Notes: a model not told the origin generated them from the sequence alone. A stretch of 64,000 nucleotides of DNA from Myxococcota bacterium (GCA_963674735.2 CAXXQS010000001.1:1152001-1216000), one strand, 5' to 3'. Counted from the stretch's first letter, positions 1,507 to 23,054 are shown. Program-made: numbers and translations.

Positions 1507-1556
1507 TTGACAAACGTTCGTTTAATCGTATACTCGAAAAATATAAACGATCGTTT
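1507..1556 (+). promoter_or_regulatory. Sigma70 promoter overlapped by two TetR-type palindromic operators
   Basis: TTGACA-N16-TATACT (1507-1534); AAACGTTCGTTT (1512-1523) and AAACGATCGTTT (1545-1556). Confidence 0.7.
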
Positions 1557-1585
1557 TAATCGGTCGTATGATTGTGGAGGTCGCA

Positions 1586-3079
1586 ATGAGGAGCGGGAGA
1601 TTCGATAAAAGGCAAACGGTCAAAGGACTTCTCTATATCTTTTTCGTTGGTACATGCTGCTTATGTCCGGCCCTCGCTTGGGCGGGGTTGTTTGATGATG
1701 CGGTCAGCGGTGAGGCGGACGCGGGAGAATCGATTGACGACACGGACGGAAGCCAGCCGGCCGATACGGGTTTTCGTGCGAGCGCAGGTGGTTTCAACTT
1801 CGAACTCAACGGCTATGTACGCGGCGATCTTTACTTGGGAAAAGTACCGGACCAGAGCGACGGTGAGGTGAAGAGCGGCTACGGCGAAACCAGCCTGGAA
1901 CTGAGAGTCCGCAAAAATCCGTATGGAGATGCCTATAGCCAACTGCGTTTGTGGAGTGGATATCAGAGTGACCAACGGGAAGTCCGGGTCGATTTGCGCG
2001 AGGCTTACGTCAATCTCTACGTCGGTCCCTTCGATTTTCGTTTGGGTCATCAGATCATTGCCTGGGGGCGTGCCGATGGCATCAATCCCACCAACAACCT
2101 CACGCCTCGCGATATGCGGGTGAAATCGCCGAACGAAGACGATTCACGCCTGGCCAATCTCGCTTTGCGAAGCTTCGTCAATCTGCAGCCGTTTCGAATC
2201 GAGCTTGTTTGGTTGCCTCTCTACATGGAATCCACCTTACCGGCCTTGATTTTGCCTGACGCGGTTTCGATGCGCGACGCGGATTATCCCAACGCCGATC
2301 TTTCCAATGGGACTTTCGCAGGACGCTTGCACCTCGAACTCCCCGAAGTGGAGATGTCGGTATCGTACTTATTCGGCCATGCCCCGCAACCGGGATTGGA
2401 ATTTCGCGAGTTGCTCATCGACGATAACGGTCCGAGCGTGCAGGTCGGGTTTCGGGCGTATCAACAGCAGGTGATCGGTTATGACTTTGCGGCGCCGATC
2501 GAGGATTGGTTCGGTCTACGGGGTGAAATCGCCTATCGGCGGCCCTGGCAGAACTGGAACAACGATTACGTTCCCCAGCCGGATCTGCAGTACGTGGTCG
2601 GTTTCGATAAGGAATTCGTAACGGCCGATTCCGGTGACGTCTCGATTATTTTGCAGTACATCGGACGTTATGTCTTTGATTGGGAGAAAAAAGCGGGTAG
2701 CGAGATGCTGAGTTCGATGGAAGAACTGCCGCCGCCGGAAGTCTTGCTTGCGCTTCAGGATCAGGTGCAAGCCGAAGCGGCAAAGGAAATACAGGCGAGA
2801 AACCAGATGATCATGAGCCAGCAGTACGAGCTCCAGCACAGCGCCATGATGCGGCTGGCGTGGAATACTCTTCACGACACGTTGGACCTTGAGTTGATGG
2901 CGATGGTCAACATCACATCGCATGAAACGCTTTTACGCCCGAAAATCTCCTACGACATTACCGATGCCTTCGCTTTTACGGTGGGTGGGGAGATTTATCT
3001 GGGCAAAGACGAGACGCTCTACGGCATGATCGATGAACAACAGAGTGCGGGTTATACGGAATTGAAAATCTCCTTCTAG
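1586..3079 (+). CDS. Outer-membrane beta-barrel protein (DUF1302-like)
   Basis: Signal peptide, LREAYV..LG.QIIAWGRADG motif, C-terminal ELKISF, context with RND and LolA-like genes. Confidence 0.7.
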   Translation: MRSGRFDKRQTVKGLLYIFFVGTCCLCPALAWAGLFDDAVSGEADAGESIDDTDGSQPADTGFRASAGGFNFELNGYVRGDLYLGKVPDQSDGEVKSGYGETSLELRVRKNPYGDAYSQLRLWSGYQSDQREVRVDLREAYVNLYVGPFDFRLGHQIIAWGRADGINPTNNLTPRDMRVKSPNEDDSRLANLALRSFVNLQPFRIELVWLPLYMESTLPALILPDAVSMRDADYPNADLSNGTFAGRLHLELPEVEMSVSYLFGHAPQPGLEFRELLIDDNGPSVQVGFRAYQQQVIGYDFAAPIEDWFGLRGEIAYRRPWQNWNNDYVPQPDLQYVVGFDKEFVTADSGDVSIILQYIGRYVFDWEKKAGSEMLSSMEELPPPEVLLALQDQVQAEAAKEIQARNQMIMSQQYELQHSAMMRLAWNTLHDTLDLELMAMVNITSHETLLRPKISYDITDAFAFTVGGEIYLGKDETLYGMIDEQQSAGYTELKISF

Positions 3080-3103
3080 TCGATTGTTGAAACAGGAGTT
3101 GAT

Positions 3104-3757
3104 ATGTCGTCTCATACGGATGATCACAAATTGGAACCGCGTCAGCGCATCATCGAAGCGGCCACCCGCTTGTTTGCGCGAAAAGGCTATTCCGCAACCA
3201 GCATGAGAGAGTTGGCTCAGGAAGCGGACGTGAATTTGGCCATGATGAATTACTACTATGGGTCCAAACAAGGGATTCTGGAGTTCATTATGGAGCAATT
3301 TTTCAGCGGCTATACGAACATGGCCAAAGAAGCTTTCCATTCGGAAGGAGCGATCGAGGAAAAGCTCGAACGATTTGTCCATATGATTGTGATGTTTTTC
3401 AAAGAAAATCGGGATACGGTTCGGGTCGCCATGATGGAATTCCCGGTAGACATCCCCGAAATCGCCGAGTTCAAAGCGACGTTCATCCGACGCCTGATCG
3501 CCGAGATCGGGATGGTTGAAGTCCTCGTGGAAAACGGTGTAACCATCCGGCCGGACATCATCGGACCGGCCATCATTTCAAGCATCGGCTCTCATTTCCT
3601 GTTGCGACCCGTGATCGAACGGGTGTTCGAGCAGAACTATGACGATGACTTCTATGAGCAATACGCCAAGGATCTTTCGCGATTTATTATCAACGGTTTG
3701 CTTGGGAGAATGACGCTTTCTTCGGAAAAACGTACCGAGAATGAGGTGAAAAAATGA
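3104..3757 (+). CDS. TetR/AcrR family regulator
   Basis: RIIEAATRLFARKGYSATSMRELA..A.VN..MMNYYYGSK HTH. Confidence 0.95.
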   Translation: MSSHTDDHKLEPRQRIIEAATRLFARKGYSATSMRELAQEADVNLAMMNYYYGSKQGILEFIMEQFFSGYTNMAKEAFHSEGAIEEKLERFVHMIVMFFKENRDTVRVAMMEFPVDIPEIAEFKATFIRRLIAEIGMVEVLVENGVTIRPDIIGPAIISSIGSHFLLRPVIERVFEQNYDDDFYEQYAKDLSRFIINGLLGRMTLSSEKRTENEVKK

Positions 3758-6060
3758 GCGGTCGACTTTCGGAAATCGTAGTTCGTTATCCGTGGATGTT
3801 TATTCTGCTATTTGTTGGGATCAGCGTCTTTTTCGGCTTCCAACTGCCGAAGGCGGAAGTCGATCCGGATGTTAAAAACCAGCTCCCGGCGGATTATCCG
3901 GCGCGTCTCCATATCGATACTCTGGAAGACATGTTCGGAGGTTCCGAAATGGTGATGCTGGTCATCACCGCCGACGATGTCCTGGCCGCCGATACCTTGA
4001 AGCGGGTCAAGCAGATCAGCAAAAAGATCGATCGACTGAAGCTGGTAGACCGCACGCTGAGTTTGTTCGAGTTGAAGGATATTCGCGGGGAAGGCGGCGA
4101 AATGCTGGTGGATCCCGCGGTCAAGCGCATTCCGAAAACCGACCAGGCGCGGGAGAAGCTGCGAGCCCAGATCATGGATAATGACCTCGTTTATGGAAAC
4201 GTTGTCTCCACCGACTGGAAGGCGACGGCCGTAATCGGTCTTCTGAAAGACGGGACGTCGGACACCGAAGTCATCGGGCTGACGCGGCAAATCATTGCCG
4301 ACACGCCCGGGGCCGAGCCGGTTTACATTGCCGGTATGCCTTATGTGCGCGTCAACCTGAATAAGGATATCAAGGGCGACTTGCGAAAGTTCCTCCCTGT
4401 CGGTTTGCTGATTATGCTGATATTTCTGTTTCTCGCGTTTCGTCAATTGCGCGGTGTGCTGTTACCGTTTCTCATGACCATTATGGCGGTTGTTGTGGCG
4501 ATGGGGTTGATTCCCTTGTTCGGCTGGAAAATCCAAATGGTGACCGTCATCCTGCCGGTTATTCTGATTGCGGTCGCGAATGATTACGGAATTCACCTCA
4601 TTGCCCGCTATCAGGAGGAAAATGTCCCCGGAAACACGTTGACCAAGCAAGATTTGGCCAAGCGCGTCGTGGATGCGCTGGGAAAACCGGTTCTGGCGGC
4701 CGGAATCACCACGATTGTCGGTTTGATGTGTTTGCTCACGCATATCATCACCCCGGCTCAGGAACTGGGTATTCTATCCTCGTTGGGAGTGGCCTTTGCC
4801 CTGTCGGGCAGCATCATGTTCATCCCGGCGATCCTGGCCGTGTTGCCCAAGGCGAAGCCTCTGAAAAACATGTCTCATGCCGGCATCGAATCCGGCGGGA
4901 CCAAGGTTTCGTTGTTGGAGCGCTTTCTCAAGAAAACCTCCCGAGCCGTCGTGGCGCATCCCAAGAAGATCATTGTCGGAACGCTTGTGTCGGTGGCGTT
5001 GGTCTCGACCGGCATCTGGCAGGTCGTGATCGATACCAATCCGGTAAATTATTATCCGCTCGATTCGCCGGTGTCCAAGGCATCCTTGCTGGCGGATAAA
5101 TACTTCGGCGGTTCGACCACCTTGAATATCACCGCCAAGGGCGACATGAAGGATCCGGTTGTGCTGAAACAGATCGATGCGTTGGAGCAACATCTGTTGT
5201 CGTTACCCAATGTCGATCAAACCAGCAGCCTGCCGAAAGTCATTCGGCGCATGAACAAGGTGATGAACGATAACAATAAAGCCTTCGACACCATTCCCGA
5301 GCAGCGCCGTACCGTGGCGGAGTATCTGCTGCTTTATTCCATGAGCGGCGATCCGGACGATTTCGACCGCATGGTGGATTTCAATTACGAAAACGCCCAA
5401 CTTACGGCGCGGATCAACAAAATCAGCACTCAGGAAATCGCCCAGGTCGTTGCGGAAACCGAACGCTATATCCAGGAAAACGGCGGACCCTTCCAGTTGA
5501 TTACGGGGTTTGCGGCCTTCTTCTCGGACATGATCGATGAAATTGTCAAAGGCCAGATGATCAGCCTGTTGCTATCGATCGTTCTGATTGCGTTGACGGT
5601 GATGATCCTCTTCCGTTCGGTCGTCGCCGGTTTGATGGCGTCGATCCCGCTAGGCTTGGCCATGCCGCTTTTGTTCGGCATCATGGGATACTTCCACGTC
5701 GAGTTGAATATCGCGACCGCGATGCTGTCCTCCATCATGATCGGGGTCGGCGTGGACTACACCATTCACTATCTCTGGCGCTATCGCGATGAACGTCGCG
5801 CCGGGCAGGAACCGGTAGCGGCCGTGACAACCACCCTGATGACCACCGGACGCGGCATTATCTTCAATGCCTTATCCGTTGTCATCGGATTCGCCGTGCT
5901 CATGGCGTCGAGCTTTCTTCCGATCCGTTTTTTCGGTATCCTGGTTGTCATCTCCGTCGGGGCTTGTCTGTTCGGTGCACTGGTTCTGCTTCCGGCGATC
6001 TGCCTGGTTTTTCGTCCGAAATACCTGGAACCTCTTGAAAACGTCGTTGAAAAAGGCTGA
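3754..6060 (+). CDS. MMPL/RND family lipid transporter
   Basis: Two-repeat RND topology with NDYGIH and GVDYTIH motifs. Confidence 0.9.
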   Translation: MSGRLSEIVVRYPWMFILLFVGISVFFGFQLPKAEVDPDVKNQLPADYPARLHIDTLEDMFGGSEMVMLVITADDVLAADTLKRVKQISKKIDRLKLVDRTLSLFELKDIRGEGGEMLVDPAVKRIPKTDQAREKLRAQIMDNDLVYGNVVSTDWKATAVIGLLKDGTSDTEVIGLTRQIIADTPGAEPVYIAGMPYVRVNLNKDIKGDLRKFLPVGLLIMLIFLFLAFRQLRGVLLPFLMTIMAVVVAMGLIPLFGWKIQMVTVILPVILIAVANDYGIHLIARYQEENVPGNTLTKQDLAKRVVDALGKPVLAAGITTIVGLMCLLTHIITPAQELGILSSLGVAFALSGSIMFIPAILAVLPKAKPLKNMSHAGIESGGTKVSLLERFLKKTSRAVVAHPKKIIVGTLVSVALVSTGIWQVVIDTNPVNYYPLDSPVSKASLLADKYFGGSTTLNITAKGDMKDPVVLKQIDALEQHLLSLPNVDQTSSLPKVIRRMNKVMNDNNKAFDTIPEQRRTVAEYLLLYSMSGDPDDFDRMVDFNYENAQLTARINKISTQEIAQVVAETERYIQENGGPFQLITGFAAFFSDMIDEIVKGQMISLLLSIVLIALTVMILFRSVVAGLMASIPLGLAMPLLFGIMGYFHVELNIATAMLSSIMIGVGVDYTIHYLWRYRDERRAGQEPVAAVTTTLMTTGRGIIFNALSVVIGFAVLMASSFLPIRFFGILVVISVGACLFGALVLLPAICLVFRPKYLEPLENVVEKG

Positions 6061-6098
6061 AAGAATAGGGGATATTGGTATCCCGAAAGGAGGCGACT

Positions 6099-6944
6099 AT
6101 GTGGAAGATATACGTGAAATATGTTGTGGCTTTTGCCGTATTGGGAGTGGTGGCCTGGTATTGGCCGGTCTGTGCGCAGGCTCAGGCCACTAAAGCGACC
6201 CCGGTTGTGGACAAAGAACTTAGTGCCGATCAGATTATCGATAAAGCTCAGGAAAACCGTAAATTGGACGGCGCGGAGAGCCTCCAGACGCTCACGATTT
6301 ACAACGAGAAAGGCGATAAGCGGGTTCGGCGTATGGCGGGCGTTTCAAAACTTTATGACAACGGCGATACCGAAAAACGCCTGATGCGCTTTACCCATCC
6401 GGCCGATGTGAAGGGAACCGGTCTTTTAACCTACGATTACGAGAAGAAAGATGACGATATCTGGCTGTTTTTACCGTCGTTGCGCAAGACGCGCCGTATC
6501 GTGTCGAGCGAAAAGTCCAAAAGCTTCATGGGATCGGAATTCAGTTATGCCGACATGACGCCTCCGCCGGTTGAGGATTTCGTTCACAAAAAGCAGAAAG
6601 TGGAAACCGTTGACGGTGTGGTTTGTTGGGTTGTGGAGTCGACGGCGAGAAGTGAGGATATCGCCGAAGAAAACGGCTATCTCAAGCGTGTGAGTTGGAT
6701 CGGACAGGCTGATTTCGTCGTTCGAAAAGCGGTCTACAACGATTTGGATGGTGAATTGCTGAAAGTCTTGACGACGAAAAACATCAAAGAAATCGATACC
6801 AAACGGCATCGTTTCCGGCCGCTTTACATGGAAATGAACAACAAACAAAACGGGCGAAAATCGGTATTCGAAACCAATCAGATCGAAATCCAGGAAGGGG
6901 TGAAAGACGATTATTTCACTACCCGTTATCTGGAACGACAGTAG
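6099..6944 (+). CDS. Outer-membrane lipoprotein-sorting (LolA-like) protein
   Basis: F..PADVKGTGLL, DD.WLFLPSLRKTRRI, SFMGSEFSYAD motifs; AGGAGG RBS. Confidence 0.9.
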   Translation: MWKIYVKYVVAFAVLGVVAWYWPVCAQAQATKATPVVDKELSADQIIDKAQENRKLDGAESLQTLTIYNEKGDKRVRRMAGVSKLYDNGDTEKRLMRFTHPADVKGTGLLTYDYEKKDDDIWLFLPSLRKTRRIVSSEKSKSFMGSEFSYADMTPPPVEDFVHKKQKVETVDGVVCWVVESTARSEDIAEENGYLKRVSWIGQADFVVRKAVYNDLDGELLKVLTTKNIKEIDTKRHRFRPLYMEMNNKQNGRKSVFETNQIEIQEGVKDDYFTTRYLERQ

Positions 6945-6956
6945 CCACGATCTTCT

Positions 6957-6993
6957 AACCCGGCGAAATCCTTGCGGGGTTTCGTCGGGTTTT
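6957..6993 (+). terminator. Probable Rho-independent terminator
   Basis: AACCCGGCGAAATCC-ttgcg-GGGTTTCGTCGGGTT hairpin with T run. Confidence 0.6.
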
Positions 6994-7169
6994 GCATCCC
7001 AACGAATCCTGCTGCAAAGTCGAAATACTTCCTGAAAATTCCCTCCTATTTCCCTTTCAACACGGTTTTAAGTTGTCGATAAATGCCTAAAAAGCCTGTG
7101 AATACAGGTGGATATCGCGAGGACGGCTAGGGTGGACATAATCATTCGTTTGCCTGTTTCATTTTAATA

Positions 7170-7224
7170 TTGACAGCCGGGAAACGGTACCGTAAGATCT
7201 GAAAACTAACTGGGCGGTCGGTTA
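7170..7224 (+). promoter_or_regulatory. Sigma70 promoter and putative operator of the GRE operon
   Basis: TTGACA-N17-TAAGAT (7170-7198); imperfect palindrome TAACTGGGCGGTCGGTTA (7207-7224) just before the tetR start. Confidence 0.6.
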
Positions 7225-7228
7225 AATT

Positions 7229-7843
7229 GTGAGCGAGGTTCAGGTGACAGCCAAAGAAAAAATTATCGAAGCGGCGGACCATCTTTTCGGAAAATTGGGT
7301 TTCGATGCGGCTTCGACACGCGAAATAGCGGAGATGTCGGGTGTTAACAAAGCCCTGATCCATTACCATTTCAAAAACAAGGATGGGTTGCTGGAAGCCC
7401 TGCTGGATCGATATTATCAGAAGCTCGCGATGCTGATCGAGACGAGTTTCCTGGATGAGGGTGACCTGAAAAAGCGACTGCTGCACATGGTCGACATCTA
7501 CATGGATTTTCTCGAGCAGAATCGAAATTTCGGTCGAATCGTCCAGCGCGAGGCCGCCGGTGGGCAACACATGGACCGCATCGAGAAAAATATGGTGCCT
7601 CTTTTCGAGTTGGGAAGCCGCGTTTTGAAAGACTCTTTTCCGGCGGCGCAAAAAGGTGAACTCGCCGCCGAACAGATGATGCTCAGTGCCTACGGCGCCA
7701 TCATCATTCATTTCATCTATGGCGATATGTTGGGACGGCTGGTCAAAAGCGATCCCCGTTCCCCCAAAGTCTTTAAAGCCAGGAAAAAACACATTCATCG
7801 CTTGATAGGAATCATGCTCGATTCGATGGATGCCGAACCCTGA
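7229..7843 (+). CDS. TetR/AcrR family regulator
   Basis: KIIEAADHLF...GFDAASTREIA..SGVNKALIHYHFKNK HTH. Confidence 0.95.
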   Translation: MSEVQVTAKEKIIEAADHLFGKLGFDAASTREIAEMSGVNKALIHYHFKNKDGLLEALLDRYYQKLAMLIETSFLDEGDLKKRLLHMVDIYMDFLEQNRNFGRIVQREAAGGQHMDRIEKNMVPLFELGSRVLKDSFPAAQKGELAAEQMMLSAYGAIIIHFIYGDMLGRLVKSDPRSPKVFKARKKHIHRLIGIMLDSMDAEP

Positions 7844-7861
7844 AAACAAGCGAGGTGAGTC

Positions 7862-10459
7862 ATGGTATCACACGCCAATTCGCAGACTGTGGTCTCGGAA
7901 GCAAGCCGGATTCGGAATATCCGGCACCGTTGCCAGAGCGGCGATGCCATGATTTCCATCGAGCGCGCCCGTTACTACACGGAAAGCTGGGAAGCGACGG
8001 CCGGGCAGGGGCTGTCGAATGCAATGCGAGTCGCCATGGCGATGAAGCACGTTTATGCAAACATGACGCTCTACCTGGACCCGGATGATCGCATCGCAGG
8101 CAATTGGACCGAATATTTCCTCGGCATTCCGATCGATATCGAGCGGGGTGTGTTCAATCAGGTGTTGAAATCGGAAATCAAGAAGAGTTCGATGATCCGC
8201 TTTCGCCTGAAATCCATGGGCAAGGGCTTGATTTACATGTTGAGAAAGGGCGCATTACCGCGCTTTCTGAAGAACCAGCGAATCGTCAAGGCGGCGGGAA
8301 CGCAACCGCTCAACATGGATTTTAAAACCATGGGCGAACGCGAGATCAATCCGTATCAAATCGAGAAAGCCGATCGGGATGAACTGCTGACCCGTATTTT
8401 GCCGAAATGGGAGGGACGGACGCTGGTCGATCAACTCGAACGGGAGATGCATGAATCCGGACTTTATTCCAAGGATATGCACGACTTTGCGGTTGCGTTA
8501 CCCGGCAATACCTCGCGCCAGGTCATGATGCTTTCCACCTGCGCTACCATCGCCACTTATCAGGGCCATGTCATTCTGGACTTCGACCGGGTGCTTGAAG
8601 TGGGCCTGACAGGCATGCTGCAGGAGCTGCGTTCCAGGCGAAAAGACGCTACGTTGAGCGAGAGTCAGAAAGATTTTCTGGATTCCCAGCTTGTGTGCCT
8701 CGAAGGTGTGAGCTTGTTCTGCAAACGTCTGGCCGAGCGCATCGAGACCGAAATCGAACACGAATCCGACGACGGCAGGCGGCGCGAGTTGGAAACCATG
8801 TGTTCGATCTGCCGCAAGGTCCCCATGGAACCGGCGGGCTGTTTTCGCGAAGCCGTTCAATCACTGTGGAGCATCAAAACGGCGGTGGAGCTGGCGCATC
8901 CCGTCAACCTGCATTGCTTCGGGCGTCTCGATCAAAGTCTGTACCCTTACTATGCCAAAGACTTGGAGGTCGGAGCGATCACCGAGGATCAGGCCTTGTG
9001 GTTGCTCGAAGAACTGCTACTCAAGATTATGTCGCAGAACATTCGCCCCGAGTCGAACATCTTAGGTAACTTCTATCATCGATTTTTAGGTTCTTCTCCG
9101 GTCACCATCGGGGGAACCGCCTTGGATGGCACGGATCAAACCAACGAATTGACCTACCTGTTTGCACGGGCGGCCCATGAATCGCGGGCTATTACCAATG
9201 TCTCGGTGCGAGTCGGAAAGAACACACCACCCCAGCTTTTGACAACCCTCGCCGAATATCTGAAGAACGGAACCTCCAGTTTCTCGCTGTTTAACGACGA
9301 AATAAATATCGAAGCGATGCGCAAGCGTGGGTTCTCGGAAGAGGATGCCTGTAACTACGCCATCATGGGTTGTGTCGAAGCGACCTGCCCCGGTAAGACG
9401 GGAAGCATGAGCGCCAACGCCTTACAGTTGAACCGCTTGCTCGACATCACTCTGCGCAATGGCGATTCCGCCATTCTGGCGGGTCTGATTCGAAACGAAG
9501 GCTTGAAAACGGGTGTCGCCGACGACTTCGCCACCTTCGAGCAATTCCTCGCTGCCCTTTATCGGCAGGCGGACCACTTTATCAAGAAAATCGTCGACGG
9601 GTCGAACCTGCGTGACCGGGTCTTTGCCGAACATCTGCCCGCTCCCTACATCTCAGCTTTTATCGACGGCTGCCTGGACTCCGGAAAGGATGTCACGCAG
9701 GGTGGGGCGGTTTACGATCTGGCCGGGATTTCGATGATCAACTCCATCGCCAATTTCGTCGATTCCCTCTACACCATTCAAAACCTGGTTTTCGAGCGGA
9801 AAAAGATCACGCTTAGCCAATTGGTGAACGCACTCGACGAAAATTTTGTCGGCTACGAAGACATCCACGCGGACATCCTGAAGCTTTCCGGGAAATGGGG
9901 TAACGGCGATCCCAAGGTGGACAAACTGGCCTCGGAGGTCATGAAACAGTTGTTCTCCTATACCTACCGGCACCGCACCAGTCGCAACGGCCCCTTCACC
10001 GTCTACGTTATCAGCATGATCACTCACACGATCGATGGGCGACTGTCCATTGCCAGCCTGGATGGCCGCAAGGCCGCCGTACCTTACGCTGCCAGTTGCA
10101 ACCCCTACAATGTCGAACGAGGGGGTGTCACCGCGGCGTTACGATCCGTGGCGTCATTGCCCTTTGAAGACGTGATGGGGTGTGCGGTGAATATGAAGTT
10201 TCATCCAAGCGCCATCGGAGAGAAGCCCGAGACGCGCGACAAGTGGGCCGCGTTGATTCGCACTTATTTCGCGTTGGGCGGCTCACAGATGCAACCGTCC
10301 TGTGTTTCGACGGAAACGCTCAAGGCGGCGCAACAGTCACCGGACCAGTACCGCGATCTGATCATCAAGGTCGGGGGGTATAGCACTTATTTTGTGGATT
10401 TGGGATGCGAGATTCAGCAGGAAATCATCGAGCGTACCGAACATGCCGGTGCGGCATGA
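7862..10459 (+). CDS. Glycyl radical enzyme (PFL-like superfamily, eliminase-type Cys loop), substrate unknown
   Basis: ISIERARYYTES N-terminus, GRLDQ.LYPYY, Cys loop MGCVE, Gly loop IIKVGGYS, C-terminal EIIERT. Confidence 0.92.
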   Translation: MVSHANSQTVVSEASRIRNIRHRCQSGDAMISIERARYYTESWEATAGQGLSNAMRVAMAMKHVYANMTLYLDPDDRIAGNWTEYFLGIPIDIERGVFNQVLKSEIKKSSMIRFRLKSMGKGLIYMLRKGALPRFLKNQRIVKAAGTQPLNMDFKTMGEREINPYQIEKADRDELLTRILPKWEGRTLVDQLEREMHESGLYSKDMHDFAVALPGNTSRQVMMLSTCATIATYQGHVILDFDRVLEVGLTGMLQELRSRRKDATLSESQKDFLDSQLVCLEGVSLFCKRLAERIETEIEHESDDGRRRELETMCSICRKVPMEPAGCFREAVQSLWSIKTAVELAHPVNLHCFGRLDQSLYPYYAKDLEVGAITEDQALWLLEELLLKIMSQNIRPESNILGNFYHRFLGSSPVTIGGTALDGTDQTNELTYLFARAAHESRAITNVSVRVGKNTPPQLLTTLAEYLKNGTSSFSLFNDEINIEAMRKRGFSEEDACNYAIMGCVEATCPGKTGSMSANALQLNRLLDITLRNGDSAILAGLIRNEGLKTGVADDFATFEQFLAALYRQADHFIKKIVDGSNLRDRVFAEHLPAPYISAFIDGCLDSGKDVTQGGAVYDLAGISMINSIANFVDSLYTIQNLVFERKKITLSQLVNALDENFVGYEDIHADILKLSGKWGNGDPKVDKLASEVMKQLFSYTYRHRTSRNGPFTVYVISMITHTIDGRLSIASLDGRKAAVPYAASCNPYNVERGGVTAALRSVASLPFEDVMGCAVNMKFHPSAIGEKPETRDKWAALIRTYFALGGSQMQPSCVSTETLKAAQQSPDQYRDLIIKVGGYSTYFVDLGCEIQQEIIERTEHAGAA

Positions 10460-11364
10460 GCCGTGGACGGATCTTCGATATTCAGACCAATGCCGTCTAC
10501 GATGGTCCCGGTATCCGCACGGTTGTGTTTTTCAAAGGTTGTCCGCTTCGTTGCGCGTGGTGCCACAACCCGGAATCCCAGTCGGCTCCGATTTCGATTG
10601 CGTGGATACGGAGCAAGTGCCGCCAATGCGGAATCTGCCTTTCGGTCTGCGACCAAGGTGCACGGCTTTGTCTGGGCGATTCGATAATTCGAAATGAGGC
10701 TCTTTGTACGTGCTGCGGGAACTGTGTGGAAAGTTGTCCCTCAGGTGCCGTGGCGTGGATTGGCGAAGAGATCGACGCAGAAGAACTGGCGAAAAAAGCC
10801 TTGCTCGACCGTCCTTTTTTCGAGCATTCCGGCGGCGGTGTGACGTTGAGCGGGGGCGAGCCGACGCAGCAACCCGAGTTCATGTTCGATCTCGTTCGGC
10901 GTATCAAGAAGGCGGGCGTCCACGTTGCCCTTGAAACCTGCGGATATTTTAGCGATGAGATGATGACGCATATTCTCGAAGAGGTGGACCTTGTTTTGTT
11001 CGATTTCAAGCATATCGACGATGGCAAACATCGGGAAGCGGTGGGAGTCGGTAATGCGCCTATCATTGAGAACATGATACGGGCGGTTCATTGGCCGGGC
11101 GATAAGATCCGGTTCAGGATCCCGGTGATTCCCGGGTTCAACGCCGATTCGGAAAGTTCGACGGCCATGGCGCGTTTCCTGGACGAAATCGGATATCGCG
11201 GCCAGGTCGATCTGATGGCCTATCACAACTATGCCGGATCGAAGTACGACAAAATCGGGAGAGCGGCCGACTTCGTCGATTTGGGATCGTTGAGTGAACT
11301 GCAAAAATCGGTTGTCGAGGAGAGTTTCAGGAATTGGAATCTTATTCCAGTTTGGGGAGGTTAG
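10456..11364 (+). CDS. Glycyl-radical activating enzyme (radical SAM with ferredoxin insert)
   Basis: DGPGIRTVVFFKGCPLRCAWCHNPE; two CxxCxxCxxxC motifs; GGVTLSGGEP; ATGA overlap with the GRE. Confidence 0.95.
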   Translation: MSRGRIFDIQTNAVYDGPGIRTVVFFKGCPLRCAWCHNPESQSAPISIAWIRSKCRQCGICLSVCDQGARLCLGDSIIRNEALCTCCGNCVESCPSGAVAWIGEEIDAEELAKKALLDRPFFEHSGGGVTLSGGEPTQQPEFMFDLVRRIKKAGVHVALETCGYFSDEMMTHILEEVDLVLFDFKHIDDGKHREAVGVGNAPIIENMIRAVHWPGDKIRFRIPVIPGFNADSESSTAMARFLDEIGYRGQVDLMAYHNYAGSKYDKIGRAADFVDLGSLSELQKSVVEESFRNWNLIPVWGG

Positions 11365-11365
11365 G

Positions 11366-13201
11366 ATGGGGGAGATGGAATCGATGGATCGAAAACGCAC
11401 GGTCCTTGTCATCGGTGCGGACGGTTTGCTCGGGAGTCATTTGGTTCGAGCCTTGCAGGTTCAACAGTATCGCGTTCGTGTTTTCAAACAGCCTGGCAGT
11501 TCGTCGCCGACATTAGACGAACTCGACTTGGAAATCTTCGAGGGGGATCTGCTTGACGAGGGGGATTCTCTCGCGGAGGCCATGCAGGGGTGTGATACCG
11601 TTTTTCACTTGGCTGCGATCACCGATCTGTGGGCGGATGAGAAAAAGGTTTGGCAAGTCAACTACGATGGCACGCGAAACGTGCTCGATGCCTGTCTGGC
11701 GGCCCATATCAGGCGCTTGATTTTCACCGGTTCCGCAAGCTCGTTTCAGTTCGGTTCGATGGATCGTCCGGGGGATGAGCGCAATTCATTTGCGCCCGAA
11801 TATCGCGGTATCGCGTATATGGAGTCGAAACACAAGGCCATGGAGTTGGTCTTGGACTATGCCGAGTCCAAAGGCTTGGATGCGCTGGTGGTTGCACCGA
11901 CCTTCATGTTGGGCGATCTCGACTGGCGGCCGAGTTCGGGCGAATTGATTCGCCAGTTTATCGCGCGCGGCATGCGGGTCACCTCGCCGGGAGGACGCAA
12001 CTTCGCTCACGTAAGCGATGTCGCCCAGGCGATGGTCAATGCGATCGACAAAGGCAAGAGCGGCGAATGCTACATTCTGGGCGGAGAAAATCTGCGCTAT
12101 CTGGATTTCTTTACCAAGGTGGCCGCCATCGCCGGGTGTGAACCGCCAAAGCGCGTGATCCCGAAAGTCGCCTTGCAGATTGCGGGTCTGATTGGATCGC
12201 TCATCGGAAAACTGACCGGCCGCCGGGTCGCGTTAAATCGCACGTTGGCCAAGCTATCCTTGATGGGTACCTATTACAGCTCGGAAAAGGCGATCCGCGA
12301 ACTGGATATGCCGCAAACGCCGATTGAAAGCGGTATCGAAAAAACGATTAAAAGCCTGTTGAGTTACCGACATATATACGCGGAGGAATCCGCAGCTTTT
12401 AAAGGGAAGGTGGCGCTCATTACCGGTGCGTCGCGCGGGGTCGGGTTTTCGGTCGCACGTGAACTGGTCAAGCGCGGCGCGAAGGTCGTTCTGAGTGCCC
12501 GAGGTGAAAGGCGTCTGCTCGATTCCAGAGATAAGCTGGAACGTCTCGGAGGTGACGTGGCGGCCGTAACCGGTGATGTGGGCAAGTGGGACGATGCCCG
12601 GCGCATGGTTGAGGTCGCCCACGACCGATTCGGCAAAATCGATATTCTGGTGAATAACGCCGGGATTTCGATGCGGGGGAAATTTCACGAGCTTTCGCCC
12701 GAAGTCTGTACCGACACCATCACCACCAACCTGCTGGGGAGCGTTTATCTAACGAAAGCCGCTATCGACGACATCCGCGAGACGAAAGGCCATGTCGTTT
12801 TCGTCTCCAGCATCGCCGGTTTGTTCGGGCTGCCGGGAGCCTCGACGTATTGCGCATCCAAGGCCGCCTTGACGGGCTTGAGCGAATCGCTGCGTCTGGA
12901 ACTGATTCCGGAGGGGGTTCACTCGGGGGTGGTCTATCTCGGCTTCACCGAACACGATCCCGAAAAAACGATTTTGGCTGCGGACGGAACCGGGGTGCGT
13001 CCCGACCGCCCCGCGCACCACACGCAAGTCTTCGCTGCCTCACTGATCGTGGATATGCTGGTGAAACGGAAACGTCGCATCATCATGACGCCTGCCGGAG
13101 TGTTGGGTGGGTTGGTTTACCGGTTTTCTCCCGGTTTCGTCGAGTGGGCGATTCTAAAGGCACAGTCCATGCAAATTGGGACTTTTAAAAAATTTTCATA
13201 A
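11366..13201 (+). CDS. Fusion: extended SDR (3-beta-HSD/HpnA-like epimerase-dehydratase) + classical SDR
   Basis: N domain GADGLLGS and YMESK; C domain TGASRGVG, NNAG, YCASK. Confidence 0.88.
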   Translation: MGEMESMDRKRTVLVIGADGLLGSHLVRALQVQQYRVRVFKQPGSSSPTLDELDLEIFEGDLLDEGDSLAEAMQGCDTVFHLAAITDLWADEKKVWQVNYDGTRNVLDACLAAHIRRLIFTGSASSFQFGSMDRPGDERNSFAPEYRGIAYMESKHKAMELVLDYAESKGLDALVVAPTFMLGDLDWRPSSGELIRQFIARGMRVTSPGGRNFAHVSDVAQAMVNAIDKGKSGECYILGGENLRYLDFFTKVAAIAGCEPPKRVIPKVALQIAGLIGSLIGKLTGRRVALNRTLAKLSLMGTYYSSEKAIRELDMPQTPIESGIEKTIKSLLSYRHIYAEESAAFKGKVALITGASRGVGFSVARELVKRGAKVVLSARGERRLLDSRDKLERLGGDVAAVTGDVGKWDDARRMVEVAHDRFGKIDILVNNAGISMRGKFHELSPEVCTDTITTNLLGSVYLTKAAIDDIRETKGHVVFVSSIAGLFGLPGASTYCASKAALTGLSESLRLELIPEGVHSGVVYLGFTEHDPEKTILAADGTGVRPDRPAHHTQVFAASLIVDMLVKRKRRIIMTPAGVLGGLVYRFSPGFVEWAILKAQSMQIGTFKKFS

Positions 13202-13222
13202 CGTTCAACACAGGAGAGCAAG

Positions 13223-13987
13223 ATGGGATTTGTCAAAACGAAGGAAGAATTGGACAAGTATTTCGCGCTAGGCGTGCGCAAATTCAGTGGCGCTCAAATG
13301 ATGGGGGTGATGTTCTCGGCACCGGCCGACGTGACCGCCGCGCTGTTACCGGCACCCTTGGAGCAGGCGGATATGCCGGGCGGTTTGATCTTCATCGCGC
13401 AATACCCGGAAACCAACCTCGGTGAAGGTTACCACGAGGCGGCGTTGTTCATCCGCTGCAAATACAAGGGAGAAGCGGGGGCGTATTGCCTCTCCATGCC
13501 CATCGACAACGAAGCCCGCATGCATAACGGGCGCGACATCTTCGGCTTCCCCAAGAAAATGGCCAACATTCAGTTCGAGAAAAACGGCAACAAATTGAAA
13601 GGGTCTGTTGAGCGCAACGGTATTCGGTTTATCGAGATCGATATCGAACTTTCAGGTTCCCTCCCCGAACTGCCGCCGACCGGTCCCACCTATCTGTTCA
13701 AGGCCATGCCGAAAATCGACTTGACGCCGGGATTCGACGGCCCGGTTTTTCTGGTGCAGCAGAAAACCGACGTCAAGCTGCAAAGCCTTGAAATCGGAAC
13801 CGCCGATGTGAAGTTGACTCCTTCGGAGTCCGATCCGTGGGCGGAAATCGAAGGATTGGCGCCCATGATGGCGTTCTATATCGTCAGCGATAACACCATG
13901 ATGCCTGGAAAGATTCTGGAAGAAGTGAACCCGGAAAGTTTCCTTCCCCATTACTACAAGATGACGGATTTCTCGGCCGGGAAGTAA
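13223..13987 (+). CDS. Acetoacetate decarboxylase family protein
   Basis: YHEAAL and GRDIFGFPKK (Schiff-base Lys) motifs. Confidence 0.88.
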   Translation: MGFVKTKEELDKYFALGVRKFSGAQMMGVMFSAPADVTAALLPAPLEQADMPGGLIFIAQYPETNLGEGYHEAALFIRCKYKGEAGAYCLSMPIDNEARMHNGRDIFGFPKKMANIQFEKNGNKLKGSVERNGIRFIEIDIELSGSLPELPPTGPTYLFKAMPKIDLTPGFDGPVFLVQQKTDVKLQSLEIGTADVKLTPSESDPWAEIEGLAPMMAFYIVSDNTMMPGKILEEVNPESFLPHYYKMTDFSAGK

Positions 13988-13999
13988 AGGAGGACGACC

Positions 14000-15202
14000 A
14001 TGATCGATTTCAGTCTTTCGGAAACCCAGGATCAATTCGTCAAAACCGCGCGGGATTTCGGTAAAAATGTCTTGCAACCGGCGGAAATCGAATTGGATAA
14101 GATGGCCGATGCCGAGGCGGCATTTCATTCGGAAACGTTTCGAAACCTGCTGGCGCAAGCCTTCGAACTCGGTTTTCACAAAATGGGGATGAAAGAGGAG
14201 TTCGGGGGGCTGGGGCTGGATGCCAATACCACCGGCCTGATCTGGGAGGAGCTGGCCCGTTACGGCGCAGGATTTACCGCCTCCCTGATGGCGGGCTCCG
14301 TCGTTCCGGCCCTGATCGCCTTTCTGGCCCCCGGCAACAAGGAGTTGCTCGACCGCTACGTCACGCCGTATTGCGAAGACACGACCGGGCAGACCATCAC
14401 CGCCTGGGGGAGCAGCGAGCCGGATGTGGGATCGGACGGAAAGAACTACTACACGGAGTCGGTGAAGCACAAAACATCCGCGACAAAAACGGAAACCGGA
14501 TTCGTCATCAACGGGGCGAAATCGAATTTCATCAGCAACGGTTCCATCGCCAAGGATTACATCGTCTTCGCCTGCCTGCAACCCGAACTCGGCATTCGCG
14601 GGTCGGGGGCGTTCATCGTGCCCGGTGATGCGCCCGGCATGACGCGCGGGAAGACGGTCGATCGCATCGGCATGCGCGCCTTGAATCAAGCTCCCATCTA
14701 TTTCGACGATCTGGAGATCCCGGAAAGTCACCTGATCTTTCCTCCCGGCGACGCCTATCCGATGCTGCATCATTCCATCATGACGGTCGGCAATCTCGGG
14801 ACCGGCTACCTGGCTTTGGGATTGATGCGGGCGGCCTACGAGGAAGCCTTGGCTTATTCCAAGGAGCGAGTCCAGTGGGGGAGGCCAATCAAAGAGCATC
14901 AGCTTGTCACCAAAAAGCTGTTCGATATCCAGGCCTCGATCTCGGCGTGTCGAGCCTTGCTTTGGCGGGGAAGTTGGCACTGTAAAAACAATTTTCCCGG
15001 CGATCTCGTAACCAGCGTCAGCGCGAAAGTCTTAACCACCGAGCAGGCGGTCAAGCACACCGCTGAAATGGTGCAGGTTTTGGGCGGCTACGGCATAACC
15101 AAAGACTACAAACTCGAAAAATACATGCGTGATGCGCCCCTGTTGCAGATCATGGACGGCACCAACGATACCTTGATGATGGAAGCGGCAACGCTGCTTT
15201 AA
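14000..15202 (+). CDS. Acyl-CoA dehydrogenase family protein
   Basis: SEPDVGSD, INGAKSNFISNG, RVQWGRPI, QVLGGYG, EKYMRDA motifs. Confidence 0.92.
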   Translation: MIDFSLSETQDQFVKTARDFGKNVLQPAEIELDKMADAEAAFHSETFRNLLAQAFELGFHKMGMKEEFGGLGLDANTTGLIWEELARYGAGFTASLMAGSVVPALIAFLAPGNKELLDRYVTPYCEDTTGQTITAWGSSEPDVGSDGKNYYTESVKHKTSATKTETGFVINGAKSNFISNGSIAKDYIVFACLQPELGIRGSGAFIVPGDAPGMTRGKTVDRIGMRALNQAPIYFDDLEIPESHLIFPPGDAYPMLHHSIMTVGNLGTGYLALGLMRAAYEEALAYSKERVQWGRPIKEHQLVTKKLFDIQASISACRALLWRGSWHCKNNFPGDLVTSVSAKVLTTEQAVKHTAEMVQVLGGYGITKDYKLEKYMRDAPLLQIMDGTNDTLMMEAATLL

Positions 15203-15210
15203 GGAGCAAA

Positions 15211-16053
15211 ATGGAGCACGCGTTTATATACGGGATCATGCTCGGCATGCTGGGCGCCTTGATGATGAATATCGGAAAGGGCGTTCAGAAACAGTACGTG
15301 CACATCTTTCTGGCGGGCCGGGGCTTTTTGCGAGCGGAGCATCGGAGAACCTTGGTTCTCTGGTCGCTCGGCTTTCTGGTGACCGCCAGTTCTATTTTTC
15401 CCTATACGCTGGCCTTGAAGATGACAAAGTCTCCCGCCTGTATTTCGGCCATGACCGGCATCGGTTTGACCGGCCTCGGACTCTATGCCGTTTGGGTGAT
15501 CGGCGAAAAGCTGAGCCGTCGCGACTTGTTCGGAATGGGGCTGATTGTCGTCGGCACCTCGCTTTTGGGTTATCTGGGGGGCGATCAAGCGGCGAACGTT
15601 CGGCAGTTGGTCGATACGAGGCTGGCCTTGGCAGGCTTTTCCATCGTCGTGGTCGCGGCCGGTATCTGTCTGTTATCGAAACGCCTCCCGCGTATTCATG
15701 GTATCGCCTTCGGTTCCGCGGCCGGAATGGCCATCGGACTCTCCATCTTTCTGGGCGATGCGGCTTTGGTCAAGGCCGGGGGCTCGCTGACCGGGCAATT
15801 GTCCAATCCCTATCCCTACATCGCGCTGGCGTCCGCCGCTTCGGCGACCGTTATCACGCAGGTCGGGTTTTTGAAAAGCCGCGCCATCGAGGTGGTATCG
15901 GCAGTCAACTCGGCGGCGATTCTCACTCCTTTGGTCTTGGAACTGATCGTCTACGGCTCGATTCCCGACTTTAAAAGACTGCTTCTGATAGCGTTGATCC
16001 TGACGGGTGTGATAGTCTTGTCCGGCGGAGCCGCCTCCCGAATTCCTTCCTGA
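15211..16053 (+). CDS. Polytopic membrane protein, DMT-like
   Basis: About 9 TM segments; GKGVQK and GEKLSRRD motifs. Confidence 0.6.
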   Translation: MEHAFIYGIMLGMLGALMMNIGKGVQKQYVHIFLAGRGFLRAEHRRTLVLWSLGFLVTASSIFPYTLALKMTKSPACISAMTGIGLTGLGLYAVWVIGEKLSRRDLFGMGLIVVGTSLLGYLGGDQAANVRQLVDTRLALAGFSIVVVAAGICLLSKRLPRIHGIAFGSAAGMAIGLSIFLGDAALVKAGGSLTGQLSNPYPYIALASAASATVITQVGFLKSRAIEVVSAVNSAAILTPLVLELIVYGSIPDFKRLLLIALILTGVIVLSGGAASRIPS

Positions 16054-16076
16054 GAAGTCCGATGGAGTGTGCTTGA

Positions 16077-16829
16077 ATGATAATCGGTTTTCATCTTGAA
16101 TTTATGGCGCTGATGGGCATCGTCGCGCTGGGCTGTCTGGTGGGGGCCGCGACGGGCTTCGGGAGCTCGACGATCATCATGACCCTTGCGGTGCTTCTGT
16201 TTCCGATCAAGGCGATCGTGGCGGTGATCATTCCGCTGAACGTCGTGATCTGCCTTTACTTGGTTCTAAAATATCGCGACGGCATCGACGCGCGCCTATT
16301 GTTTTTGCGCATCGTTCCCCTCACCGTGCTCGGCATGCCCCTGGGCTTGCTTATCTTCGAACTGGCCGACACCAACCGCATGAAGCCATTCTTTGGTGCA
16401 TTTGTGATTCTGCTCTCGATATTCGAGCTGTGGCGCAGCAGACAAAACACGGATGGCCCGCGACCGTCACCCAAGCTTGCCTCGTCTGCTTTTTGGCTTG
16501 TTACCGGCGGCGTCATTCAGGGTTTGTGGGTAACCGGCGGACCCCTGGTGGCGTACTGGGCCAGCCGAGCCATCGACAACAAGCACGAGTTTCGCAGCAC
16601 CTTAAGCGCGCTTTGGTTGATTCTGAACGTGATTCTGCTGGTCAGCCACGGTGTGACGGGAACCATCGACTTGGGAACGGCCAAGGTCAGCCTGGCGCTC
16701 ATACCTGCCTTGATGCTGGGGATTGCGCTGGGCGAGCGTATCCATCATTATCTGCCTGAACGTTCCTTCAAAATGTTGGTGTATATCGTTCTGCTCTTTT
16801 CCGGTACGGCGATTCTGCTCAGTGATTGA
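16077..16829 (+). CDS. TauE/SafE (TSUP) family exporter
   Basis: GAATGFG, GMPLG, GGPLV and FRSTL motifs; about 8 TM. Confidence 0.85.
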   Translation: MIIGFHLEFMALMGIVALGCLVGAATGFGSSTIIMTLAVLLFPIKAIVAVIIPLNVVICLYLVLKYRDGIDARLLFLRIVPLTVLGMPLGLLIFELADTNRMKPFFGAFVILLSIFELWRSRQNTDGPRPSPKLASSAFWLVTGGVIQGLWVTGGPLVAYWASRAIDNKHEFRSTLSALWLILNVILLVSHGVTGTIDLGTAKVSLALIPALMLGIALGERIHHYLPERSFKMLVYIVLLFSGTAILLSD

Positions 16830-16969: not shown

Positions 16970-17689
16970 TTATTCAGTCGGTTTCCAAACCTTCCACACT
17001 TTGCCAACCAACTCGGGGCCGACCTTCAATACCGGTTGTCCGGGCTCCCAACCGGCCGGGCAAACCTCGGCACCGGCGGTTGCACGCACATGCTGGAACG
17101 CCTGAAGCTGGCGAATCGACTCATCGACCTTGCGGCCGACAGGCGGAGTCAGGATTTCGATGGCCTGCACCACGCCGTCCGGATCGATGATGAAGCGACC
17201 GCGCACGTCCACGCCTCCGGCTTCATCGTAAATGCCGTAGACGGAGCCGATACGGCCACCCGCATCCGAGAGCATAGGGAAGGGGAATCCGCCCTTCACC
17301 ATCTTGCTCAGTTCATCTTCGTTCCAGATTTTGTGCACGAAACGGCTGTCCGTGCTGCACGCGAGAACTTGTACGCCCAGTTTGTTGAAGACTTCGGCCT
17401 TGCCGGCGACCGCCGACAGTTCCGTGGGTCAAACAAAGGTGAAGTCACCGGGGTAAAAGCATAGGAATACCCATTTCCCCTTGTAATCCGACAGTTTGAC
17501 TGTTTTGAAGCCACCCTGATGAAAGGCCGATGCCTCAAAATCAGGTGCTTCCTTGCCTACCATTACTTGCATGGCAGTGCCTCCCTTTTCATTAGATGTA
17601 TCATCCGTTTTCATCTCGTCCGGTTTCGCTGCGGCCGAAATCGGCCCCTTGGCCGGTTGGACACAGCCTTCCGGCTGCTTGCTGGCCAT
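16970..17689 (-). CDS. prxU: Selenocysteine-containing peroxiredoxin (AhpC/PrxU type), TGA at 17429-17431 read as Sec
   Basis: ORFs 17429-17689 and 16970-17338 share a frame; readthrough gives [18 protein letters not shown] with TGA at the peroxidatic Cys position, and EVCPAGW as resolving motif. Confidence 0.9.
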
Positions 17690-17739
17690 TTGCCCTCCTT
17701 TCTCTTGAAAAAGAGATATGTAAAAGAAACTCCCACATC

Positions 17740-17768
17740 ATGATAACGAGAGTGAAAAGCGGATGCAA
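17740..17768 (-). promoter_or_regulatory. Putative sigma70 promoter of prxU
   Basis: TTGCAT-N17-TATCAT on the minus strand. Confidence 0.5.
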
Positions 17769-17859
17769 TGGTGAAGTTGAAAGAAATTAAAAGGATTACA
17801 AATTCAGGAATTGGGAGTCGGGCTTAGGAATGGGGGGTTGTTTTTGTTACCAATCCCGT

Positions 17860-17928
17860 GTTGGAGCACACCTCCGGCGGGCTCCGGGCCTAGCGTATCT
17901 GAAGAGTGGGTCGGAGATCGGCCCCAAC
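17860..17928. repeat. Dispersed structured intergenic repeat, copy 1
   Basis: 17860-17895 matches the reverse complement of 35208-35243 at 29/36 positions; both are followed by an AGTGG-hairpin-CCA segment. Confidence 0.55.
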
Positions 17929-17945
17929 CTTGGAACGGCTCGTTT

Positions 17946-22993: not shown

Positions 22994-23054
22994 GAGGTAT
23001 TCCTAAGTGGGAGCGTAAATAATGTTTCGCTTCCTCGACAAAACCCATTGTTCG

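Follow-up and report, generated by a model that had tools for sequence, protein, structure and literature searches.

The 64,000-nucleotide window analysed here, from a Myxococcota bacterium (GCA_963674735.2, CAXXQS010000001.1:1152001-1216000), carries an eight-gene operon (7229-16829) built around a glycyl radical enzyme (GRE) which, judged by its sequence, belongs to an isolated, uncharacterised clade of eliminase type. The genes run in the order TetR, GRE, activase, fused short-chain dehydrogenases/reductases (SDRs), acetoacetate decarboxylase (ADC)-family protein, acyl-CoA dehydrogenase (ACAD)-family protein, DMT-like membrane protein and TauE. A 284-bp intergenic stretch separates them from a transporter operon (1586-6944) that is unrelated to the GRE operon. 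From the genes, their motifs and their conservation we infer a chemistry, an order of steps, a membrane location and a class of substrate. The GRE would be a membrane-side radical C-O eliminase that attacks the polyol portion of some bulky amphiphile and feeds a Schiff-base enzyme, a reading that we favour only tentatively and would not yet call probable. Whatever the substrate, the clade marks an undescribed anaerobic pathway, widespread in uncultured anaerobes, with fixed non-canonical ADC-fold and ACAD-fold partners.

The GRE gene (7862..10459, + strand) encodes 865 residues with the hallmarks of the superfamily, namely PF02901 and PF01228, a catalytic Cys, a C-terminal Gly loop and an activase. 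The protein nevertheless stays under the cut-off of all 12 NCBIfam families that it matched (bits/cut-off: HypD 399/1100, CutC 371/1050, HpsG 419/1000, HpfG 386/1000, indoleacetate decarboxylase 260/1100, hydroxyphenylacetate decarboxylase 220/1150, PFL 99/994, TIGR01774 453/678) and is at most 28% identical to the solved GREs listed by a fold search, so that its initial description as an unassigned eliminase-type GRE holds. The top structural matches are the glycerol and propanediol dehydratases (TM 0.82-0.84, 26-28% identity; model pLDDT 89.5). When 5.8 billion proteins were searched, 513 of the 8000 scored candidates matched at E<=1e-50, and the best 119 relatives are 60-69% identical. A profile search of 1.84 billion representatives ended in a cliff, with full-length matches at 1408 and 1004 bits and then at 589. 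Record titles and source names place the relatives in Myxococcota, Hydrogenedentota, Phycisphaerae, Actinomycetota, Desulfobacterales, Gemmatimonadota and Nitrospirales. The clade was found in 7 of the 401 genomes of a phylum sample; 15 genomes had distant GREs only, at most two candidates per genome being scored. We found no published description of the clade in titles and abstracts, a scope outside which most subscription journals and supplements, such as similarity-network tables, fall.

The neighbourhood of the GRE was compared with that of 98 further loci. Genomes supplied 13 of these and related genomes another 5, and the remaining 80 are the best of 193 from metagenomes; L014 (28% identical) was left out as distant, and the G004 stretch to avoid counting its locus twice. 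The 76 groups formed at 85% identity are approximate, since G268 entered both the grouping and the tree in an incorrect reading frame. A sister branch of 12 loci was separated by hand, from the tree and from an Asp in the Cys loop, and partner counts refer to the 41 main-branch loci with at least 6 kb of downstream sequence. Near these, the extended SDR was found at 37, the classical SDR at 38, the ADC-family protein at 35 and the ACAD-family protein at 34, followed by the activase (26), TetR (23), DMT (15) and TauE (12). Retention of neighbours in homologues had been named as a test of the proposed pathway: the enzyme half passes it, and the RND and LolA genes of the adjacent operon, found near 0/98 loci, do not. 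Gene order is frequently rearranged between loci, and G006 and G009 encode both the activase and the extended SDR at other genomic sites, away from the GRE. L005, whose GRE is the most similar among the named loci (69%), has the identical eight-gene order.

Within the window, all 13 named genes are intact and on the + strand (ORF calls and Pfam scan), just as the first-pass annotation had it for two adjacent, co-directional, TetR-linked operons. It had also seen no small accessory or shell genes. Indeed, the gaps in the GRE operon are at most 23 bp and therefore leave no room for a small-subunit or shell gene between genes, and none occurs among the 16 ORFs scanned, the remainder of the genome being unsearched for shell genes. 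The parent genome comprises three contigs (5.26 Mb). One public contig covers 1200-17200 without differences, and there is therefore no assembly break across this region; it is perhaps the window's own source, and so not independent.

The Cys loop, G503-C504-V505-E506, has a single Cys, as first described, and Gly839 lies in an unusual K-V-G-G-Y loop. Cys504, Gly839 and His236 are invariant (120/120 proteins), and Glu506 is kept in 117, with Asp in 3. According to the accessible text of a 2026 GRE review, the C-x-E motif found here is common to GRE eliminases and isomerases, and in glycerol dehydratase His164 is the proton donor to the leaving hydroxyl, Glu435 also having an assigned role (PMC13450708). 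His236 aligns to His166 of propanediol dehydratase and occupies the position of this donor on the first barrel strand. The His-Ser pair that binds the diol in propanediol dehydratase is replaced by Asn349-Leu350, and the overall identity (26-28%) is below orthologue level. Two further replacements could widen the pocket. Ser411 (119/120) aligns to a Trp of IseG and HpsG, with a one-residue ambiguity against propanediol dehydratase (Gly410 or Ser411), and Ala520 (Ala in 113 and Gly in 7 of 120) aligns to a Tyr of HypD; in solved eliminases the aromatics at these positions line the substrate pocket. Residue statistics over outside representatives were not used, the alignment being too gapped in these loops.

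The sulfonate anchor that the review, in the sections accessible, gives for HpsG (Arg183, Gln187, Arg672; PMC13450708) falls on Thr232, His236 and Tyr715 in an alignment to 6lon, and because of this a sulfonate lyase seems unlikely. The suggestion that a sulfonolipid is attacked and sulfite released had leaned on the TauE gene, which is found near 12/41 loci only, and is not borne out.

Two of the partner enzymes, the ADC-fold and the ACAD-fold protein, are non-canonical. The activase (10456..11364, + strand) is a radical SAM protein with a ferredoxin-type insert, well over its model's cut-off (TIGR02494, 314 bits against 174). The ADC-fold protein (13223..13987, + strand) has the Schiff-base Lys111, in a P-K-K motif kept in 35/35, together with Glu72. 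It scores 62 bits against a family cut-off of 150, and its Ala24 and Phe57 stand at the positions of the Arg and second Glu of acetoacetate decarboxylase, where the Arg binds the carboxylate; by its score and these residues it is not a canonical acetoacetate decarboxylase. The ACAD-fold flavoprotein (14000..15202, + strand) has Asp386 for the catalytic Glu and T-V-G-N/S for D-x-x-R, against Glu and D-G-G-R in butyryl-CoA dehydrogenase, and both changes are found in 29/29 relatives. Among the 8 other aligned ACADs of the genome, the Arg is present in 8/8, the Glu in 6/8 and the Asp in 0/8. In ACADs the CoA ester is bound by the helix-G Arg. Nitroalkane oxidase, which has the same fold, works without CoA and uses Asp as its base; the window flavoprotein is probably CoA-independent. 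Moreover, the cluster has no recurrent gene for a CoA ligase, hydratase or thiolase, and CoA ligases occur in three groups only, at varying positions. The acyl-CoA steps once envisaged for this operon thus lose their footing. The fused SDR protein (11366..13201, + strand), with an extended and a classical domain that are often split in relatives, comes closest to HpnA (244/368 bits) and PRK06181 (214/215 bits), respectively. Neither domain has an acidic residue after the second strand, the mark of NADP(H)-type SDRs, and both look to be of that type.

We propose the following sequence of events. Once the GRE is activated on Gly839, Cys504 would take a hydrogen from the carbinol carbon, Glu506 would deprotonate the carbinol hydroxyl and His236 would protonate the adjacent leaving oxygen; elimination of water or an alcohol would leave a carbonyl product. 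A basic hairpin (see below) would dock the enzyme on the inner face of the membrane, and the widened pocket would accept the polyol end, of glycerol or sugar type, of a bulky amphiphile. Lys111 of the ADC-fold protein would then bind the carbonyl product as a Schiff base and split it by retro-aldol cleavage or beta-elimination, and the two SDRs and the probably CoA-independent ACAD-fold flavoprotein would adjust the redox state of the pieces. The eight genes would constitute an autoregulated catabolic operon.

The membrane part of this scheme draws on an insert specific to the family, 46 residues long (residues 107-152; 8180..8317, + strand), with two helices and a net charge of +12 in the window protein. 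Relative to solved GREs, three alignments place about 50 extra residues here. The insert is present in 80/80 loci covering the region. Two anchor positions lie 103 residues apart in the family, whereas the median is 53 for the 121 of 129 outside representatives in which both could be placed (the other 8 were without an anchor, and 6 had a distance of at least 75). The predicted model places the helices at 108-128 and 132-145 with a pLDDT of about 80-90. Across 120 proteins the net charge of the insert is +5 to +13, and the remainder of the window GRE has -21. When 18-residue windows were ranked by a lipid-binding discriminant, the top 15 all started at residues 100-129.

Several observations weigh against a membrane-bound amphiphile. 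The hydrophobic moment of the hairpin (0.27-0.29) does not exceed the values of other helices, and its discriminant score is driven by charge. Invariant polar residues (Arg395, Arg407, Ser218, Gln220, Asn627), of which Arg395 and Arg407 might bind an anion, suggest a polar or anionic ligand. DMT and TauE transporters usually move small solutes. A methyltransferase-like protein of the URO-D fold lies near 14/98 loci, with a corrinoid protein at 3; its N-terminal domain weakly resembles a C-glycoside deglycosidase subunit (E 7e-5 to 1e-3). The sister branch (GRE 49-56% identical, with the same His236, Asn349, Arg395 and Arg407) shares the hairpin, yet it adjoins FGGY kinases, cupin isomerases, aldolases of the DeoC, KDPG and DHDPS types and MFS sugar transporters. 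Finally, indoleacetate and hydroxyphenylacetate decarboxylases, which act on soluble substrates, have an extension of 41-46 residues near the channel mouth, N-terminal to the barrel and where small subunits block the substrate channel, which the accessible part of one study reads as a gate (PMC13598205). By analogy, the hairpin may be a membrane anchor, or simply a gate, at the channel mouth.

These points would suit a soluble dehydratase or ring-opening isomerase whose substrate (a sugar, polyol, sugar acid or O-methyl glycoside) would enter through the DMT and TauE proteins. Its deoxy-keto or deoxy-aldo product would be cleaved by the ADC-fold protein, and the hairpin would serve as a channel gate or assembly surface. 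Besides the sister branch and the URO-D-fold protein, this alternative has precedents, as far as the accessible texts go, in the sugar C-O cleavage by YbiW and PflD (PMC13450708) and in the gating extensions (PMC13598205). On the other hand, the sister branch differs in the Asp of its Cys loop (12/12), in its pocket residues and in its partners (SDR, ADC and ACAD in 0/12), and neither a sugar kinase nor a sugar transporter recurs among main-branch neighbours. Hydrophobic ligands are suggested instead by the HpnA-like SDR, by an exported START/SRPBCC-like protein near 6/98 loci (5 groups) and by an SCP2 gene in one locus. We rate the soluble alternative only a little below the membrane reading. 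The hydrophobic clues, which also include the hairpin and an Ntn-hydrolase lipoprotein with an unannotated partner near 6/98 loci (3 groups), point two ways when taken with the sugar clues. A lipid-like substrate may still be right, on grounds other than those first advanced (the basic hairpin, the wider pocket and lipid-binding accessory genes in a minority of loci), with a sugar-like substrate as a near-equal rival. The Ntn-hydrolase was also considered as a ceramidase link, which we rejected: its matches to acid ceramidase/NAAA are weak (E 0.02-0.4) and give no more than a hint.

The sister branch nevertheless bears on the chemistry common to both readings. Its GRE goes together with class I Schiff-base aldolases, and this speaks for the ADC-fold partner acting like an aldolase. 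The pairing of a GRE with a lysine Schiff-base enzyme in both branches fits a beta-oxygenated carbonyl as the GRE product.

As aromatic substrates we considered aryl-glycerols and beta-aryl ethers derived from lignin or plant phenolics. Here the GRE would eliminate the C2 oxygen, as water or aryloxide, and retro-aldol cleavage by the ADC-fold protein would give an aromatic aldehyde. The missing pocket aromatics would leave space for an aryl ring, demethylation of methoxy groups could fall to the methyltransferase-like protein and its corrinoid partner, the extended SDR has flavonoid and cinnamoyl reductases among its weak matches, and a FAD oxidoreductase near 6/98 loci has 4-phenol oxidases among its best solved matches. 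These last matches are limited to the shared FAD domain. Moreover, the anaerobic ring-opening hydrolase TIGR03200 passes its cut-off in one of five GRE-bearing genomes, which is not G000, and four of the five have the heme-pathway URO-D only. Since this hydrolase was not found in 4/5 genomes, an aromatic substrate is disfavoured, and we consider this route improbable.

About equally improbable, in our estimate, is a biosynthetic or remodelling operon in which dehydration by the GRE and NADPH-dependent reductions remove oxygen from a lipid or glycan of the cell itself. The NADP(H)-type SDR domains would indeed favour the reductive direction, and the basic hairpin fits a membrane substrate. The patchy distribution (7/401 genomes), the dedicated TetR with a single operator and the two transporters are more typical of inducible catabolism. 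Tailoring of the cell's own hopanoids, a specific form of this idea, was rejected, no squalene-hopene cyclase having been found in 5/5 genomes (90-96% complete).

The 284-bp stretch upstream of the GRE operon holds a terminator-like hairpin and a second promoter. The hairpin, at 6957..6994 on the + strand, ends the transporter operon with 16 pairs followed by U's (-25.1 kcal/mol, z -4.5, 0/200 shuffles as stable), though a stricter terminator scan does not list it. The promoter (7170-7198) and a conserved 20-bp palindromic operator (7206-7225), both on the + strand, precede TetR 2 (7229..7843, + strand). Of 21 other regions 5' of a TetR orthologue, 17 contain the palindrome, with at least 13 of 20 positions matching. 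In 3 of the 4 misses the TetR gene lies inside the operon, and two of those have the site at the operon start. A matrix built from the 17 non-window sites gives 25.5 at 7206-7225 and 15.5 at the next-best site in the genome, the best score in 2 Mb of shuffled DNA being 14.5; 7206-7225 is thus the sole strong operator site genome-wide. One further operator pattern search was designed after the site had been seen, and is not independent. TetR 2 presumably autorepresses the GRE operon, and its single-site operator offers a direct route to the inducer, as the hairpin insert offers a direct test of whether any GRE acts at a membrane.

The transporter operon has its own control region (1507..1556, + strand), a promoter with the palindromes AAACG(T/A)TCGTTT at 1512 and 1545, a candidate operator of TetR 1. 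Both palindromes are kept 5' of the orthologue in G003, and look-alikes were seen by eye in G006, G008 and G009. The promoters, at 1507-1534 and 7170-7198, are of sigma-70-like type, the region's total of 7 such sites being at chance level (8.9 +/- 2.9). A regulon shared by both operons was tried and rejected, as the GRE-operon matrix scores -0.9 at the first promoter. The two operons are separate transcription units with their own promoters and operators.

The transporter operon encodes a DUF1302-like (AmeA-like) outer-membrane protein (1586..3079; Pfam DUF1302 E 1.4e-9; 42-51% orthologues in six relatives), TetR 1 (3104..3757; 30% identical to TetR 2 over 104 residues), an MMPL/HAE3-type RND transporter (3754..6060; 12 predicted membrane helices) and a LolA_like (AmeB-like) periplasmic protein (6099..6944; Pfam PF17131 E 2e-57), all on the + strand. 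It had been taken for part of the GRE pathway, and our comparison contradicts this. No counterpart of its outer-membrane, MMPL or LolA gene lies near any of the 98 other GRE loci, including the 35 with at least 7 kb of upstream sequence. The MMPL query picks up 20-26% paralogues in its own genome and so has the sensitivity needed, that of the outer-membrane query being lower. MMPL orthologues (53-61% identity) occur in 7/40 relatives, and 6/8 fetched stretches have the genes arranged as outer-membrane protein, (TetR), MMPL, LolA, with a GRE in 0/8. Three GRE-bearing relatives, G004, G006 and G009, hold both units with the cassette located apart from the GRE, at 2.3 Mb in G004 and 72 kb in G006. 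In G002, G003, G008 and G012 (86-94% complete) the MMPL orthologue is present and a window-type GRE was not found. The first operon is a self-regulated, free-standing AmeABD-like HAE3 cassette, unrelated to the GRE operon.

These data also bear on the pathway originally drawn, in which a lipid (a sterol or hopanoid polyol, a sphingoid base or a sulfonolipid) imported through the outer-membrane protein, MMPL and LolA would be cleaved by the GRE and pass through acyl-CoA steps. The operons are adjacent and co-directional in the window, both units co-occur in the three relatives just named, and related cassettes matter, as far as the accessible texts go, for growth on hydrophobic substrates (PMC6394551; 10.1101/2020.07.04.188060). 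Indeed, in Pseudomonas putida the homologues influence how the cells grow on fatty esters (10.1101/2020.07.04.188060). Deletion of AmeABCD, the single cassette relative tested, lowered monoterpene tolerance, which the available portion of that study reads as efflux (PMC6394551), so that import is not established even for the cassette. Together with the distribution above, the separate operator and terminator, the missing sulfonate anchor and the non-canonical ACAD motifs make this pathway very improbable. We propose that the cassette transports some hydrophobic compound. The transporter next door is a misleading clue and should not guide the choice of substrate.

Returning to the membrane-docked eliminase, one concrete form would start anaerobic breakdown of ether or polyol lipids. 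Dehydration by the GRE would turn an alkyl-glyceryl ether with a free diol (or a lipid-linked sugar) into a beta-alkoxy aldehyde, from which the ADC-fold protein would eliminate a long-chain alcohol through its Schiff base, and the ACAD-fold protein and SDRs would process the C3 piece and the alcohol. This specific form is unlikely as it stands, and if true would give uncultured anaerobes of several phyla an anaerobic route for ether-lipid cleavage. Of the enzymes in the 2026 review, six are eliminases that break a C-O bond, one a C-N bond and three a C-S bond, and three are isomerases; every one of them acts on a small soluble molecule, and in its accessible text the words 'membrane' and 'ether' never occur and 'lipid' occurs in two references only (PMC13450708).

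Other GREs and accessory genes were seen along the way. An orphan GRE paralogue (33%) lies at L015:6496-14110 (G000:C3, about 98.5-106.1 kb), with no activase in the 20 kb fetched. It is transcribed divergently from a paralogue (57%) of the extended SDR and adjoins the Ntn-hydrolase lipoprotein and unannotated partner that flank the window-type GRE in 6/98 loci. An obligate partnership with it was rejected: it held in the 4/4 GRE-bearing genomes first compared, but G268, G348 and G350 gave a single match. In G009 a single activase was found at E 1e-30, so activases may be shared between GREs. A 1111-residue ORF at L018:8002-11334 (G000:C1, about 880-883 kb) fuses an activase to a GRE. Three low-GC loci (0.34-0.37), L119, L122 and L109, carry a tandem second GRE of another unstudied clade (57-60% to the G017 GRE) and a FAD oxidoreductase, L119 adding a CCG-domain protein, a methyltransferase and a corrinoid protein. 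In the sister branch, L123 and L138 have two tandem GREs with one shared activase, followed by an Fe-alcohol dehydrogenase and an FGGY kinase, and in L123 also a DeoC aldolase. The N-terminal domain of the URO-D-fold protein at L001:8393-9916 matches Pfam HMG-CoA_red_N and, weakly, DUF6379/C-glycoside deglycosidase beta subunit structures. In L005 a FAD oxidoreductase lies directly 5' of the GRE operon, along with an SCP2 gene; the oxidoreductase's 69% orthologue at L194:9035-10453 (G000:C1:1662037-1663452) is about 500 kb from the GRE.

The last two genes of the GRE operon, both on the + strand and accessory, encode the DMT-like membrane protein (15211..16053), which has no Pfam hit and is EamA/NIPA-like by language-model features (score 0.95), and the TauE/SafE-family transporter (16077..16829), to which the copies of some relatives are only 26-31% identical. 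The most likely starts are ATG 10456 for the activase, in an ATGA overlap with the GRE stop, 11366 for the SDR protein, 1586 for the outer-membrane protein and 6099 for LolA; ribosome-binding sites are seen at these revised starts. Directly 5' of the transporter operon lies an EamA-family transporter gene (337-1416), whose start is probably later than the listed TTG. On the minus strand, 16970-25244 carries genes for a peroxiredoxin, DUF2149 and MotA/ExbB, a TonB-receptor-like ORF and two ORFs (22993-20564 and 20681-18942) that resemble a cobaltochelatase-type protein in two pieces, the last two labels having been given by eye, without a scan.

In comparison with known systems, the closest likeness is to glycerol dehydratase (1r8w) and propanediol dehydratase (5i2a/5i2g, 9rco), which share the fold, the C-x-E loop, the first-strand His and the adjacent activase; the window GRE differs from both by its roughly 50 extra residues in the N-terminal region, its K-V-G-G-Y loop and its SDR, ADC and ACAD partners. 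The C-S lyases IslA, IseG and HpsG also have the same fold and C-x-E loop, but their Arg/Gln/Arg anchor is not present here. The indoleacetate and 4-hydroxyphenylacetate decarboxylases have an extension that is about as long and lies in broadly the same N-terminal part of the protein, a likeness of length and position, and the window GRE is far under both of their cut-offs. To the GRE sugar isomerases YbiW and PflD it is 25-26% identical, and the main-branch operon has no kinase or PTS gene. These isomerases cleave a C-O bond beside a carbinol and, in the accessible account, pass the product to an aldolase (PMC13450708), which parallels the sister branch. For the transporter operon, the counterparts are AmeABCD of Castellaniella defragrans and the DUF1302/DUF1329/RND cassettes of Pseudomonas. 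The same set of DUF1302, LolA-like and HAE3-type RND proteins is found together here, with TIGR00921 as the best RND model yet under its cut-off (299/352 bits), and the window cassette differs from AmeABCD in having an internal TetR and no AmeC/BNR gene in its four-gene operon.

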